A DNA stretch of 19,987 bases from a virus (taxonomy: Duplodnaviria > Heunggongvirae > Uroviricota > Caudoviricetes). The notes under the pieces are model-generated. The model saw nothing but the letters and a program-made list of their open reading frames with translations. It made no database searches and had not been told where the DNA came from. The stretch spans positions 1 through 19,987 of IMG/VR virus record IMGVR_UViG_2541047875_000009. One strand, 5' to 3'. Positions 1-8,334 of this stretch are shown here, one piece after another (the first letter of the stretch is position 1; each line of letters starts with the position of its first letter). The position numbers were made by a program, and so were the translations under genes.

Positions 1-1269
1 ATGCCAAAACTCACAGATATGCAGATCCGCGCATGGATAAAGGCGGGAGACAGATTTGATGGCAAGGCAGACGGCAACGGCCTTTATATTTGCTACCCCA
101 AAAACTACACAGTCCCGTTCTGGCGATTCCGATATAAGCTCGCAGGAAAACAGCGGGCTATGGTTATCGGCTCTTACTCCGAACTGTCACTATCAAAAGC
201 CAGAGAAACAGCAAAAGAGCTGTCAGCCAGAGTTGCTCTTGGCTATGACGTAGCAGCAGAAAAACAGGAACGAAAAGCTGAAGCACTGGCAAAAATGGAG
301 GCTGAGAAAAACGCCATGCGCGTTTCAGATCTGGCCGCCGAATACTTCGAGCGACAGATACTTCCGAGATGGAAACATCCCGATATCCTTCGCCGGAGAA
401 TTGATAAGGATATTAACCCCTGCATTGGGCATATGAAGGTAGAGGACGTTAAGCCACGCCACATTGACGACATGTTGAAAGGTATCGTTGACCGAGGAGC
501 ACCAACGATAGCAACAGATGTATTACGCTGGACACGCCGTATCTTTGACTATGGGATAAAACGCCACGCTCTGGAGATAAACCCTTGTTCAGCGTTTGAA
601 GTATCTGATGCTGGTGGTAAAGAGGTTTCCCGCGACCGTTGGCTAACTCGCGATGAGCTTATCAGGCTATTCGAGGCTATGCGCACCGCAAAAGGATTCA
701 GCCGCCAGAACGAACTGACATTTAAGCTATTGCTGGCACTATGCGTTCGTAAGATGGAGTTATGCGCCGCACGATGGGAAGAGTTTGATTTAGATGGTGC
801 GGTATGGCATTTGCCGGAAGAACGCAGCAAAAACGGAGACCCTATTGATATACCTCTACCTTCTCCTGCCGTTGAATGGTTGAGAGAGCTACACACCTTT
901 TCATGTAATAGCGCATGGGTGCTTCCAGCTAGGAAGATGCAAAACAGAATGATCCCACATATTCAGGAAAGCACTTTACCCGTAGCACTGGCTAAGGTTC
1001 GCGCCGAAATGCCGGATGTGCCTAATTTCACGATTCACGACTTCCGGCGTACCGCACGTACTCATTTAGCAGCATTGGGTGTTGATCCTGTCGTAGCGGA
1101 ACGATGCCTCAATCATCGCATTAAGGGTGTGGAGGGGATTTATAACCGCCATCAGTATTTTGATGAGCGTAAAGCTGCGCTGGCACAGTGGGCTGATCTG
1201 CTGGTGGCACTGGAAAGCGGGAAAGACTACAACGTAACGCCATTCGATAAAGCCCGGAGGCAAATGTGA
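1..1269 (+). CDS. int: P4-type tyrosine integrase (site-specific recombinase)
   Basis: 422-aa ORF starting at the first base of the window. C-terminal region has the R...HDFRRT...LNHR...Y pattern typical of phage-type tyrosine recombinases; overall layout resembles P4/CP4-type integrases. Assignment from translated sequence only. Confidence 0.9.
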   Translation: MPKLTDMQIRAWIKAGDRFDGKADGNGLYICYPKNYTVPFWRFRYKLAGKQRAMVIGSYSELSLSKARETAKELSARVALGYDVAAEKQERKAEALAKMEAEKNAMRVSDLAAEYFERQILPRWKHPDILRRRIDKDINPCIGHMKVEDVKPRHIDDMLKGIVDRGAPTIATDVLRWTRRIFDYGIKRHALEINPCSAFEVSDAGGKEVSRDRWLTRDELIRLFEAMRTAKGFSRQNELTFKLLLALCVRKMELCAARWEEFDLDGAVWHLPEERSKNGDPIDIPLPSPAVEWLRELHTFSCNSAWVLPARKMQNRMIPHIQESTLPVALAKVRAEMPDVPNFTIHDFRRTARTHLAALGVDPVVAERCLNHRIKGVEGIYNRHQYFDERKAALAQWADLLVALESGKDYNVTPFDKARRQM

Positions 1270-2680: not shown

Positions 2681-3505
2681 ATGAAACTGCGAAAAACGCC
2701 CGTACAGGGGCAGGGCTTCGTTCGGCCTGAAAACCAGAATCTGCAAAATTTCGGCGAAATTATCCCGGTTATTTCCGGCGTTATTGGCGGGCGTGAAGCC
2801 GCTGTTGTTAGCGCAAAAGCGTTACACAAAGCGTTGGGCGTGGGAAAAGACTTCTCTACATGGATCACTGATCGTATCTCTGAATATGACTTCACCATTG
2901 GGTACGATTACTCAGTCCATAAAACAATTTCCCCAAATTTGGGGAAAAGCCCGAATGGCGAGGCTTACAGCAAGATTAAGCACTCTGGCAGACCCGGTAA
3001 AGACTATCTGTTAAGTGTCGGAATGGCGAAAGAACTGGCAATGATCGAACGCACCGAACAGGGCCGCGCCGTTCGTCAGTACTTCATCAAATGCGAGGAG
3101 GAGCTACACAAGGTAGCGCCTGTACGTTCCGCAGCGTTACGCCGGGAACTGAAAGCCCGTATCACCGTAGCCAGCTACTTTAAGCCGATGTGTGCCGCGC
3201 TGGAGGCGTACCGCGCTGAACTGGGTAAAAACACGCTCCAGCACCACTACACCACGGAAGCCAATATGCTGGCGCGTATCGTGCTGGGTGGCATGACTGC
3301 AAAACAGTGGGCGCAGGCGAACGGCATCACAGGCGAACCACGCGACCACATGAGCACGCTGCAGCTTGAGCACCTTTCTTACCTTGAGCAGAGCAATATC
3401 ACGCTGATTGAGTTAGGCCAGGACTACCACCAGCGGAAAGCTGAATTAATTCGTCTTTCGCAACGCTGGTTAGCCCGCCGCATGGAGGTGAGCAGCCATG
3501 CGTAA
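2681..3505 (+). CDS. phage antirepressor, AntA/AntB-like N-terminal domain with a KilA-C-like C-terminal part
   Basis: 274-aa ORF. N-terminal region (AKALHKALGVGKDFSTWITDRI ... GKDYLLSVGMAKELAMIERTEQGRAVRQYFI) resembles the AntA/AntB antirepressor domain. Domain call is from recollection of the family pattern. Confidence 0.7.
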   Translation: MKLRKTPVQGQGFVRPENQNLQNFGEIIPVISGVIGGREAAVVSAKALHKALGVGKDFSTWITDRISEYDFTIGYDYSVHKTISPNLGKSPNGEAYSKIKHSGRPGKDYLLSVGMAKELAMIERTEQGRAVRQYFIKCEEELHKVAPVRSAALRRELKARITVASYFKPMCAALEAYRAELGKNTLQHHYTTEANMLARIVLGGMTAKQWAQANGITGEPRDHMSTLQLEHLSYLEQSNITLIELGQDYHQRKAELIRLSQRWLARRMEVSSHA

Positions 3506-3914
3506 ACCTGTCTTTTATGCCGGGCGCACTGAAATCTCTGTCATTAAATTCGATGACATTCAGGTGCGCATAGTGAGTATCAACGGCGAGCCGTGGTTTG
3601 TTGGCGCTGATGTGTGTGCTGCGCTGGAAATCAGCAATGTTACTGATGCTGTTTCAGTTCTGGATAACGACGAGGTAATGACCCTAGCTTTAACCGAGGG
3701 GCATTCCGGTAAGCGTGGTGGTGCCAGAAGCTGGAATGTTGTCTCTGAATCAGGTTTCTACAAACTGATCGCCCGCAGCCGTAAAGCTTCCACACCTGGC
3801 ACATTTGCGCACCGTTTCAGTAACTGGGTATTCCGCGAGGTTATTCCTTCAATCCGCAAAACGGGGAGTTATGGTGTTCCGTTTGCCATGCTGAATGATT
3901 TCAGTAAACGCTAG
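3498..3914 (+). CDS. Bro-N domain protein (phage antirepressor-type DNA-binding domain)
   Basis: 138-aa ORF overlapping the upstream gene by 8 nt with GGAGG at 3484-3488. The IKFDDIQVRIVSINGEPWFVGADVCAALE segment matches the Bro-N hallmark. Confidence 0.7.
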   Translation: MRKPVFYAGRTEISVIKFDDIQVRIVSINGEPWFVGADVCAALEISNVTDAVSVLDNDEVMTLALTEGHSGKRGGARSWNVVSESGFYKLIARSRKASTPGTFAHRFSNWVFREVIPSIRKTGSYGVPFAMLNDFSKR

Positions 3915-4113
3915 GCTGCATATCAACAGGAAGCCAGCAAACGCGGTTACAGGTTACAGCAATGCAAAGAGGCAAAAGATGCACTGGAACGAGAAGAGCG
4001 GGCGCTATGGCGTAAATATCAGCCTGATTTTCTGGAGGGTGAAAGCAATGTGTAACGATCCGAACGTTACAGAAAGAAAAAGCGCCCCGTTGCTAGATAA
4101 CAGGCAAAACAAA

Positions 4114-5272: not shown

Positions 5273-5575
5273 ATGAAGAAGATTAAATTTACTGGCTTAA
5301 ATGCCAGCGGACAGACTCATCCGAAAATCAGGATCGGGGATATTTTCCGGGATAAATATGGTGACAGCGTGGTTATTAATTCCGTGTATGAACGGCACAT
5401 TACATACCGCCGCGCAGGGTATGACTATGACTGTGTGATGCCCGTTCATCAGTTCCGGCGTGATTTTTCACTGGTATGTGCAGCACCACGCAGTAAGCCC
5501 ACCAGTAAAGAGAAAGCACGGGCAAATATTCAGGTAATAAAGAACATGATTAACGCATTCAGGGGCAAGAAATGA
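5273..5575 (+). CDS. hypothetical protein
   Basis: 100-aa ORF immediately after the previous gene; its stop overlaps the start of the replication gene (ATGA). Confidence 0.5.
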   Translation: MKKIKFTGLNASGQTHPKIRIGDIFRDKYGDSVVINSVYERHITYRRAGYDYDCVMPVHQFRRDFSLVCAAPRSKPTSKEKARANIQVIKNMINAFRGKK

Positions 5576-7698
5576 AACGCGCACCGAATTTAAAGCACCA
5601 GCCGAAAGACAAAATGACGGAGGTGATTATCTTTGCGGGTAGTGATGCCTGGGCACATGCGAAAGAGTGGAGCGAATGGGCCGGAAAGCATATTGCGGCA
5701 GATGATACACATCCAGTTATTCTTGGACCGGAACAACTGGCGAGTCTGGCAGACACGCAAATCATCGACAAAGGGCGCTATTACGTGCGCGTTTATCGTG
5801 CTGGTGAAATATCAGAGCAGCACCTTACACAGATAGCGACACTGCTTGCAGTGGCGGGTGTGAAGGAGGCGCGTTGCTACCGCAGCTTTGTTGATCAGCA
5901 GCCGGAGGACTGGACACCGCGCATGACTGGACTGAAGGATGATGCGGAACGCGGTAACAGTCTGGTGATCAACCTTCCGGCGAAGACAAATTTCACCGGA
6001 AATTATGATGACGAATTAAAGCCTCGTGTTGAAAGTCGCGTCGATGGTGTTTTCTGGGTAACGCCCAAAGTGGACAAGCAGTCAGGCGAAATTATCCGGC
6101 CTGAGACGTGGTTATGTTCTCCGCTTGAACTACTGGGAACAGGAACAATCGGCAAAGAGCATTACCGCGTGATGCGCTGGAAAAAACCAGCAAACCATGA
6201 GGTCATTACAATGGCGGTCCCGTGCGGAGGCATTGGTGACCGTGACGGCTGGCGGTTGCTGAAAGACCACGGCCTTAACGTGACGACCAACGGCAAATAC
6301 AGGGCTATCCTGGCTGACTGGATGCAGTTAAGCGGAAACCATGAGGAATGGCAGTTAAGCACAACAACGGGGTGGCATTTTGGTGCGTACATCATGCCGG
6401 ATGGTTCGATCATCGGTGAATCAGAGAAACCCATCCTGTTTACCGGAAAAACTGCCGCTGTTAATGGCTATTCCGTGGCGGGAACAGCGGAGGGCTGGCG
6501 CGATACCGTGGCACGGCTGGCTGGTGGTAATCCGTCCATGATGCTGGGTGTGGCGGTATCGCTATCTGCACCATTAATCGGGCTGGTGGGTGCTGACGGC
6601 TTCGGGGTTCATCTTTTTGAGCAATCATCAGCAGGTAAAACCACCACACAGAACATTGCCTCAAGTTTATGGGGAGAGCCGGACGCGCAACGGCTGACCT
6701 GGTACGGAACGGCGTTAGGTATCGCCAACGAGGCCGAAGCACATAATGACGGGCTGTTACCCCTGGATGAAATAGGCCAGGCCGGAAACGCACGGGAGGT
6801 GTCCACGTCAGCCTATACGCTGTTTAACGGTTCCGGGAAATTACAGGGGGCGAAGGACGGCGGCAACAGGGAGATAAAACACTGGCGTACGGTGGCAATC
6901 AGCACCGGAGAAATGGACGTTGAAACATTCCTCAAAACGGAAGGGATAAAAATTAAAGCGGGGCAGCTTGTCCGTCTGCTTAACGTACCGATGGAAAAGG
7001 CCTCGCAGTTTCACGAATACAGCACCGGAAAGGCGCACGCAGACGCGTTAAAAAATGCCTGGACAGAAAATCACGGGGCGGCAGGTCGTGAGTGGGTTAA
7101 ATGGCTGGCAGGTCACCAGCAGGAGGCAAAGGACGCGGTAAAGGCATGTCGCGAGCGGTGGCGCAACCTGATACCGGAGAGCTACGGCGAGCAGGTTCAC
7201 CGTGTGGGGGAAAGATTCGCCGTACTGGAGGCCGCGCTTGTGCTTTCCGGTCATGTTACAGGCTGGGATGTTCAGGCGTGCCGTGATGCAGTTCAGCATA
7301 ACTTTAATGCCTGGGTGAAGGAATTCGGCACGGGCAACAGGGAATTTAAACAGATGGTTGAACAGGCTGAGGCGTTTTTGTCGTCGTTCGGGTTCAGTCG
7401 ATACCTTCCCTATCCAAACAGCGACGAGCGTGATTTACCGATTAAAGACCTTGCCGGATACAGAAAGGGGAGCATCAGAAACGAAGATGAGGAGTTCCGT
7501 TTTTACACGTTCCCGCATGTGTTTGAGGGTGAGATAGCACAGGGATTTAATCCGTCTCACTTTGCCCGCGCGTTGAGTGCTGCCGGAATGCTGGAAGCGG
7601 GAGGCGACCGCCGTTACAAGAAAAAGGCGCTCGGCAGGATTGGCGGGAAGCAGCATATTTTTTACGTGCTGATGTTCCAGCCTGAAGCAGAATATTAA
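5572..7698 (+). CDS. putative replication initiator / primase-helicase-like P-loop NTPase (satellite pri-rep type, possibly DUF927-like)
   Basis: 708-aa ORF. Walker A-like EQSSAGKTT (coding 6631-6645) and Walker B-like LLPLDEIG (about 6757-6780). Followed directly by an iteron cluster. Family name is from recollection. Confidence 0.75.
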   Translation: MKRAPNLKHQPKDKMTEVIIFAGSDAWAHAKEWSEWAGKHIAADDTHPVILGPEQLASLADTQIIDKGRYYVRVYRAGEISEQHLTQIATLLAVAGVKEARCYRSFVDQQPEDWTPRMTGLKDDAERGNSLVINLPAKTNFTGNYDDELKPRVESRVDGVFWVTPKVDKQSGEIIRPETWLCSPLELLGTGTIGKEHYRVMRWKKPANHEVITMAVPCGGIGDRDGWRLLKDHGLNVTTNGKYRAILADWMQLSGNHEEWQLSTTTGWHFGAYIMPDGSIIGESEKPILFTGKTAAVNGYSVAGTAEGWRDTVARLAGGNPSMMLGVAVSLSAPLIGLVGADGFGVHLFEQSSAGKTTTQNIASSLWGEPDAQRLTWYGTALGIANEAEAHNDGLLPLDEIGQAGNAREVSTSAYTLFNGSGKLQGAKDGGNREIKHWRTVAISTGEMDVETFLKTEGIKIKAGQLVRLLNVPMEKASQFHEYSTGKAHADALKNAWTENHGAAGREWVKWLAGHQQEAKDAVKACRERWRNLIPESYGEQVHRVGERFAVLEAALVLSGHVTGWDVQACRDAVQHNFNAWVKEFGTGNREFKQMVEQAEAFLSSFGFSRYLPYPNSDERDLPIKDLAGYRKGSIRNEDEEFRFYTFPHVFEGEIAQGFNPSHFARALSAAGMLEAGGDRRYKKKALGRIGGKQHIFYVLMFQPEAEY

Positions 7699-7720
7699 CT
7701 TCCCTGTGTGAGGTAAAAAG

Positions 7721-7846
7721 TTGCGGGTTATGCGGGTTATCCTGTGTATAAGTTAATTAAATGCATGATTAAAAAGGAAATCAATAACCCGCACGTAACC
7801 CGCAAAACGGCAGTTATAACCCGCAAATGTGCGATTGTAACCCGCA
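7721..7846. repeat. iteron cluster, putative replication origin
   Basis: Tandem direct TGCGGGTTA x2 (7722-7740), an AT-rich spacer (7751-7780), then inverted copies TAACCCGCA at 7785, 7796, 7817 and 7838 (spacings 11, 21, 21 bp). Starts 23 bp after the replication gene stop. Confidence 0.6.
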
Positions 7847-7908
7847 AAATTTCACTGTAAGAGTGTAAACAAGCGTAACTATCACGTTAAAACCGGAGAA
7901 CAAACAGC

Positions 7909-8334
7909 ATGACGGCGCAAATATCAGCTTACGGGCGGCTGGTGGCTGACCCGCAGTTAAAGACCACCAGCAAGGGCACACAAATGGCGATGGCGAGTAT
8001 GGCGGTCCCCCTTCCATGCAATCAGGCAGATGACGGAACGGCGACGATGTGGTTATCCGTCCTGGCGTTTGGCAGACAGGCTGACGCACTGGCAAAACAC
8101 CACAAAGGCGAACTGGTGAGCGTGGCCGGTAACATGCAGGTGAGCCGGTGGACGGGCCAGAACGGCGAAACGAGGCAGGGATGGCAGGTTATCGCAGACA
8201 GCGTAATCAGTGCGCGAACGGCGCGACCGGGCGGCAAAAAAGGCCAGCAGGGGCAGGCTACTGATGCACTGAACAGGGCAAAGCAACAGACAGGCCAGCA
8301 CGATGATCCGTACGGGGACGGGATACCGTTTTAA
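7909..8334 (+). CDS. single-stranded DNA-binding protein-like (OB-fold SSB family)
   Basis: 141-aa ORF. N-terminal GRLVADPQLKTT and the WLSVLAFGRQAD ... GELVSVAGNMQVSRWTGQNGETRQGWQV pattern resemble the SSB OB-fold; C-terminus ends in GIPF like the SSB acidic tip (DDDIPF). Confidence 0.65.
   Translation: MTAQISAYGRLVADPQLKTTSKGTQMAMASMAVPLPCNQADDGTATMWLSVLAFGRQADALAKHHKGELVSVAGNMQVSRWTGQNGETRQGWQVIADSVISARTARPGGKKGQQGQATDALNRAKQQTGQHDDPYGDGIPF

Follow-up and report, generated by a model that had tools for sequence, protein, structure and literature searches.

The replication origins of SaPIs lie immediately downstream of rep (Ubeda et al. 2007, as cited in PMC9371898 and PMC7581432), and PMC9371898 describes a SaPI origin as an A+T-rich centre flanked on either side by two or more iterons, in opposite orientations. 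The C-terminal domain of SaPI-type Rep is described as a winged helix in PMC9371898, and Cch, a DUF927 helicase, is given as a relative of SaPIbov1 Rep in PMC7581432. The yicC-dinD interval is among those at which Gram-negative PICIs are listed as integrating (Fillol-Salom et al. 2018, PMC6092414, Table S1), and a pri-rep-ori segment of EcCICFT073 drives plasmid replication (PMC6092414). In the annotated P4 record, crr immediately follows alpha, and ori, which has the same repeats, is 4.7 kb away; two 120-bp units make up crr, and each contains a tandem pair of type-1 repeats at 9-bp pitch together with inverted copies. A sequence-only reading of the DNA described below had cited P4 as an example of a rep-then-ori layout, which the P4 record contradicts, the site directly after alpha being crr and not ori.

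In this paper we analyse a stretch of DNA of 19,987 nucleotides (the window) and compare an iteron cluster within it to the origins of related satellites. Judging from sequence comparisons, the cluster at 7722-7846 very probably serves a PICI-type satellite, inserted between yicC and dinD, as its rep-proximal origin module. A second, mirror-image module beside cos is a new observation made here.

The chromosome of E. coli MS 196-1 matches the window with 100% identity, and the window represents an integrated island of 18.9 kb between yicC and dinD which is built like a Gram-negative PICI. The two copies of a direct repeat of 24 nt, CGTGTACATAGAGGTGTACATAAT and a single variant of it, are 18,920 bp apart (L001), just upstream of the integrase and at 18840-18863, and island-free genomes match the window from 18833 onwards. 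A GTGTACA-type doublet flanks EcCIRM13514 too, a published PICI at the same yicC-dinD site. The published att core of EcCIRM13514, GAGCAGATTCAA, has one imperfect copy here and was set aside, as the GTGTACATA doublet fits better. From left to right, the island genes encode the integrase, a 216-aa hypothetical protein, an AlpA-like HTH protein, AntA, BRO-N, YlcI/YnfO, Icd-like and DUF4222 proteins, followed by the DUF927 protein (Rep), SSB, ProQ/FinO, PerC, three large ORFs and a few small ones, and all but one of the annotated genes are on the plus strand. The AlpA-like HTH gene (2388-2606) matches phrog_66, 'excisionase and transcriptional regulator', and its counterparts in related loci L086 and L090-L092 carry Pfam Phage_AlpA. 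Because two genes are pseudogenes according to RefSeq, BRO-N (3498-4055, internal stop) and PerC (approximately 9274-9499, frameshift), this copy of the island may be partly decayed. The coordinates of the main features are given in Table 1.

Table 1. Features of the integrated island, in positions of the window.
Feature	Position	Strand	Description
Tyrosine integrase	1-1269	+	Pfam Arm-DNA-bind_3, Phage_int_M, Phage_integrase; RefSeq annotation
rep	5572-7698	+	708-aa DUF927 helicase-initiator (predicted); Pfam DUF927 1.1e-46
Module 1, left arm	7722-7739	+	2 contiguous TGCGGGTTA iterons, 7722-7730 and 7731-7739, 9-bp pitch
Module 1, A+T-rich spacer	7740-7784		74-81% A+T
Module 1, right arm	7785-7846	-	4 inverted iterons, top strand TAACCCGCA, starts 7785, 7796, 7817, 7838
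Island SSB	7909-8334	+	First gene after module 1; Pfam SSB 2.4e-16
Module 2, array arm	18303-18353	+	3 TTTGCGGGTTAT iterons at 18303, 18324, 18345, 21-bp pitch
Module 2, A+T-rich spacer	18354-18429		75 bp, 69% A+T
Module 2, tandem arm	18430-18456	-	Degenerate ATAACCCGG, then TAACCCGCA twice, 8-9-bp pitch; mirrors module 1 left arm
phiP27-type cos site	18492-18571	+	85.5% identity to annotated cos-site of phage phiP27
attR core	18840-18863	+	CGTGTACATAAGGGTGTACATAAT; direct-repeat partner attL 57-80 nt upstream of window position 1

Between the two modules, the cargo region at 9935-17282 holds three large ORFs of 843, 686 and 925 aa, which match families of phage virion proteins, namely phrog_992 'head protein', phrog_1145 and phrog_684 'virion structural protein'. 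The first of these (phrog_992) contains a transglycosylase-like segment, and its E. coli homologues are annotated 'virion core protein, T7 gp14 family'. The island is a satellite with ejection/internal-virion-type proteins and without capsid or terminase genes. Searches of the island for rpp, capsid and terminase genes found none, PADLOC gave no match to the cargo ORFs, and there are close relatives of 8-11 kb which lack the virion-type ORFs.

The 8-mer TAACCCGC has 13 exact matches in the whole window against 0.50 expected, the maximum in 200 shuffles being 3 copies; six copies are in 7723-7845 and another five in 18304-18455, while the remaining two stand alone. The six iterons of the first cluster, two in tandem and four inverted at 11, 21 and 21 bp, had been pointed out from the letters alone and are borne out by this count, and the coordinates agree equally with the A+T-rich spacer and with a first repeat 23 bp past the stop of the rep ORF. 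The right-arm spacings approximate whole helical turns, with the inverted array phased at 11, 32 and 53 bp, or about 1, 3 and 5 turns, and they are seen again in relatives with other motifs. The spacer between the arms (7741-7783, 43 bp) is 74% A+T, or 81% over 7748-7783, against a window average of 52%, and is presumed to be the unwinding region. The left arm is unchanged across four E. coli elements that share the Rep C-terminus. The sole DnaA-box consensus (TTATACACA) in the window lies at 7743-7751 on the minus strand, within the spacer, and is kept within the TGCGGGTTA group; elsewhere there is a near-match in L063, and the box was rejected as a family-wide feature since it is restricted to these cases. 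Rfam gave no match anywhere in the window, and a literature search with the iteron string returned primers only.

It could be argued that the repeats bind Rep mainly for regulation or copy control, by autoregulation, an effect on the ssb operon or handcuffing, and that initiation takes place elsewhere, for example at the distal module. In P4 it is crr that directly follows alpha, with ori 4.7 kb off; here one motif is common to both modules, and ssb starts 62 nt past the last iteron. In the plus strand of 7550-8000, however, no convincing sigma-70 promoter or terminator was found, and module 1 alone has the full layout of the validated SaPI and PICI origins (PMC6092414; PMC9371898). We regard a purely regulatory role as improbable, and it overlaps the origin reading rather than opposing it.

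The PDB matches of Rep include 8tch_A, 'Pathogenicity island protein' (1.1e-14, residues 214-603), and 5dgk_A, 'Active helicase' (7.5e-4), and by homology Rep is a relative of the SaPI Rep and Cch helicases of staphylococci. An alignment of 20 Rep homologues has a conserved core and mosaic ends, some homologues being near-identical to the window Rep up to approximately residue 600 and then continuing into an unrelated C-terminus. The last 100 residues or so of Rep are a swappable module which tracks the iteron sequence. At the other end, the first 160 residues or so share 41% identity with the N-terminus of EcCICFT073 Pri-Rep (window 5572-6050 against 5242-5730 of L082), yet the helicase cores of the two proteins belong to different families despite this shared N-terminal module. 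AlphaFold models had a mean pLDDT of 48.7 for full-length Rep and 38.5 for the last 135 residues, too poor for fold searches; sequence and profile searches of the PDB with the C-terminus gave no meaningful match, and BLASTP of the C-terminus against the origin-binding region of P4 alpha gave no alignment.

Loci encoding Rep relatives were sampled at one per species from Enterobacterales, giving 80 loci. The same repeat layout follows the rep stop in 74 of the 80 related loci with enough sequence, across many Enterobacterales genera. Within 170 bp of the stop, these relatives have two or three contiguous copies at approximately 9-bp pitch, starting 20-30 bp past the stop, then an A+T-rich spacer of 50-65 bp and finally three or four inverted copies at 11, 21 and 21 bp. 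The layout is shared by loci whose motifs are TGCGGGTTA, GTGGGTTAT, ACGGGTTA, (C/G)TTGTCCCA, TGTTGGTTCA, GTTGTCTCA, GTCGGTTCA, GTCGGGTA, GTTGTACCA, AGTGTGTCA and others. Approximately 30 distinct motif strings, of about a dozen types, track the Rep C-terminal sequence: motif similarity is correlated with identity in the last 70 or so Rep residues (Spearman 0.75, with none of 999 Mantel permutations as high), and the partial correlation is 0.72 for the C-terminus given the helicase core and -0.21 for the core given the C-terminus. In 22 related loci, an SSB gene is found downstream of rep and the origin. When a motif-blind detector of the architecture was run on approximately 1.6 Mb of fetched DNA, no further such modules were found.

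Individual E. coli islands illustrate the same pairing. In L086, an island at yejM, Rep is approximately 97% identical to that of the window in the helicase core and has a different C-terminus, and both of its modules use TTGTCCCA in an unchanged layout, a natural swap of the C-terminal domain. Conversely, the Reps of L090-L092 are 82-89% identical overall, have the window-type C-terminus, and all use TGCGGGTTA. Purifying selection on the iterons is indicated as well, their columns being much better conserved than the intervening spacers: among type-matched elements 47 of 48 iteron columns of module 1 are invariant versus 83 of 113 others (p = 1e-4), and in module 2 the values are 38 of 40 versus 63 of 133 (p = 1e-8).

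Two other DNA-binding proteins of the island, the integrase and the AlpA-like regulator, might be supposed to recognise the repeats, as arm-type sites (integrases use repeated arm sites) or as operators. The motif, however, follows neither protein. Loci L013, L018, L024, L026 and L031, in which the integrase is 85-91% and AlpA 73-90% identical, carry quite different motifs, ACGGGTTA or TTGGTTCA. The clusters, moreover, are separated from attL by 7.8 kb and from attR by 0.4 kb, and the neighbourhood of attL is free of copies. Recognition by the integrase or AlpA is hardly credible. Because the layout recurs, the motif covaries with the Rep C-terminus, natural swaps occur and the iterons are conserved, binding of the cluster by the C-terminal module of Rep, and with it origin function of the SaPI/PICI type, is clearly the best reading. 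The rep-then-iteron-origin arrangement that the sequence-only reading had proposed is upheld by this architecture in relatives, by the covariation and conservation, by the homology of Rep and by the PICI gene order.

That reading described the origin incompletely, however: its account of module 1 holds, and a mirror-image module at 18303-18456 was overlooked. Module 2 is the reverse-complement image of module 1, with a three-copy array, an A+T-rich spacer and three tandem copies; five of its copies are perfect and one is degenerate. The gap between the modules is 10,456 bp, and the interval contains ssb, proQ/finO, perC and the three large ORFs. Of only two exact IHF consensus matches in the window, one is at 18386-18398 (minus strand), inside the spacer of module 2, and a TTGATA in this spacer is kept in 6 of 6 aligned module-2 copies.

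The distance between the modules varies among the related loci. In 43 of them module 2 is adjacent, within approximately 300 bp, and the two form a large imperfect palindrome in the order tandem copies, A+T, array / array, A+T, tandem copies. In at least 10 loci module 2 is 0.5-10.7 kb downstream, and in 21 no second module was found under the criteria used; the window is the extreme split case among the surveyed loci. The second module carries the motif of its own locus and is, for instance, of the TTGTCCCA type in L002 and L086. Islands with a window-type Rep occur in both forms, adjacent in L090 and L091 and split in the window and L092, with module sequences that are nearly identical. L092 (3589-21077), in which the modules are 7.6 kb apart, is a capsid-forming PICI within a prophage, embedded in its helper between the small terminase and portal genes.

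In the window, a phiP27-type cos starts 35 bp from module 2, and the equivalent of the phiP27 cleavage site is at approximately 18533-18541. The same cos sequence follows module 2 in L002, L086, L083 and L084, and a conserved TTTTGTATATATATACGAAAAATTGCATTC... abuts module 2 in the window, L002, L086 and L092 and leads into the phiP27-cos-like stretch. In the E. coli/E. albertii lineage, the position of the distal module is fixed, at 35-80 bp from cos. No split or cos-adjacent second module was found described in the PICI papers searched. The phiP27-type cos is of the HNH-dependent kind, which points to HNH/TerS/TerL cos phages as helpers. A further element, CACTGTTTTGTATATATATACGAAAAATTG (window 18457-18490; approximately 12475-12500 in L090), always comes after the module 2 tandem arm, whether cos (in the split form) or an 80-aa ORF and ssb (in the adjacent form) comes next, and may be a promoter or a part of module 2.

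Since module 2 is positioned beside cos, one might take the repeats for packaging signals, to which a small terminase or a redirecting protein would bind as at a cosB; the geometry of module 2, in which inverted sites surround a bendable A+T spacer that contains an IHF consensus, does resemble lambda cosB (PMC9026076). Phage phiP27, however, has no such repeats beside its cos, and module 2 is therefore not a phage-type cosB. Module 1 is 10.7 kb from cos; in most relatives the two modules follow rep immediately, a long way from any cos; the motif varies together with Rep; and no terminase is encoded by the island. A packaging role is, on this evidence, very hard to credit.

Two E. coli islands, L083 (a capsid-forming PICI) and L084 (at cspD-clpS), have P4-alpha-like Reps and rep-proximal origins that use TGTTCACC and TGTCTACC, respectively, and each has an intact, non-cognate TGCGGGTTA module beside the same cos (14009-14161 in each). 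Hence a module need not have a cognate Rep in cis in order to persist. L092 has the same capsid-forming backbone as L083 but pairs it with a cognate DUF927 Rep, and for this reason a recent replacement of the rep module is the simplest explanation for L083 and L084; alternatively, their non-cognate module may be used in trans. Such lingering modules, together with the BRO-N and PerC pseudogenes of the window, could suggest that the repeats are the decayed remnant of an origin in a non-replicating island. We consider this highly improbable: rep is intact, with 99-100% identity in clusters that comprise hundreds of sequences, all eleven full iterons of the two modules are perfect, and the island is nearly identical in 45 complete E. 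coli genomes.

With an origin of the SaPI/PICI type as the preferred reading, we infer Rep binding, melting and the choice of the module that fires from sequence alone, as follows. Rep would be a DUF927 AAA+ helicase-initiator of the SaPIbov1-Rep/Cch lineage, in which the exchangeable C-terminal 100 residues or so would recognise the 9-bp TGCGGGTTA. The contiguous pair and the array on one face of the helix, which are oppositely oriented, flank the A+T-rich stretch, and Rep oligomers assembled on both sets of iterons would melt this stretch, so that Rep could load itself as the replicative helicase. The island SSB and host enzymes would then complete theta-type replication of the excised 18.9-kb circle, and the distal module would either cooperate with the proximal one or be a second origin. 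Because module 1 has a cognate mirror-image partner at 18303-18456, the cis-acting system would be two-part, like crr and ori of P4. That this large family of satellites in enterobacteria has an obligatorily two-part origin, in which the mirror modules act jointly in cis by looping or paired helicase loading and tolerate a separation of 0.5-10.7 kb, is a more tentative proposal which we think possible rather than probable. If it is true, accessory and packaging cargo would sit between the two halves and the initiation of replication would be physically coupled to the packaging site.

These comparisons assign an origin, an initiator and boundaries to an 18.9-kb mobile island for which RefSeq labels give only hypothetical, DUF927 and similar. 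They also provide a testable recognition code, in which about a dozen Rep C-terminal types are paired with 8-10-bp iterons across Enterobacterales, natural swaps included, and which could help in engineering orthogonal satellite replicons. The split layout suggests a closer likeness of PICI origins to P4 than has been described, with two cooperating sites, and also that the two halves of the origin can accept accessory cargo between them.

The layout had at first been likened to those of P4-like satellites, PICIs and iteron plasmids alike; the PICI part of that comparison stands. The island, as far as its gene content and Rep family indicate, is not P4-like, and its Rep is not an iteron-plasmid initiator. 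Iteron theta plasmids (pSC101, R6K, RK2, P1) resemble the window in having sites phased at approximately two helical turns next to an A+T-rich region, and DnaA-box and IHF consensus sequences occur in the spacers of the window. Their initiators, however, are winged-helix proteins (RepA, Pi, TrfA) which recruit DnaB, whereas Rep is predicted to be a self-loading helicase; their iterons are direct and 17-22 bp long, in contrast to the inverted sets of 9-bp iterons here, and the DnaA box is not conserved across the Rep family of the window.

P4 is similar in that two cis sites share one iteron and one of them follows the replication gene, with a separation of 4.7 kb in P4 and 10.5 kb in the window, a resemblance that is one of layout only. 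Each crr unit, too, combines a tandem pair at 9-bp pitch with inverted copies. The window Rep and alpha come from different helicase families, and BLASTP detected no similarity between the C-terminus of Rep and the origin-binding region of alpha; the crr units are direct repeats whereas the modules of the window are mirror images; and the cos of the window is of the phiP27 type and not of the P2 type. Only the Icd-like gene is shared, and sid, psu, delta and epsilon were not found in the island by Pfam scans, PHROG scans or RefSeq annotation. P4-like features do occur among E. coli PICIs: EcCIRM13514 Rep and P4 alpha have C-terminal regions with 49% identity, and L083 (5440-5680) and L089 (8560-8800), with Reps of the 'DNA primase family', have the P4 type-1 iteron TGTTCACC.

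Among Gram-negative PICIs, EcCICFT073 has the order int, alpA-like HTH, YlcI, Icd-like, DUF4222, rep, ori, ssb and PerC, as in the window, and its origin is likewise directly 3' of rep, with iteron sets on either side of an A+T-rich region. EcCIRM13514 shares the yicC-dinD site, the kind of att doublet and the overall gene order. The window differs from both in that its helicase core is DUF927 rather than the P4/D5 'DNA primase family' and its iteron is TGCGGGTTA rather than TGTCTACC or TGTTCACC. Its mirror modules are 10.5 kb apart and not within approximately 300 bp, its island is 18.9 kb long as compared with 8-15 kb for published PICIs (PMC6092414), and it has virion-type cargo where published ones have capsid or Rpp genes.

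The Rep-ori systems of SaPIs and the Cch system of SCCmec have a homologous DUF927 helicase, an origin 3' of rep and opposed iterons around an A+T-rich centre, as the window does. The SaPI literature also places specificity in the C-terminal domain of Rep, which is suggested here by covariation, and gives iterons of 5-6 bp as against 9 bp in the window. Unlike SaPIs, the system described here has a strictly conserved asymmetric pitch (9-bp tandem copies against an 11/21/21 array), a second, mirror-image module and a Gram-negative host, and no separate primase gene was recognised in the island of the window. The kind of origin is thus already known, the PICI/SaPI type directly 3' of rep, and the DUF927 Rep with its TGCGGGTTA iteron is an added member.
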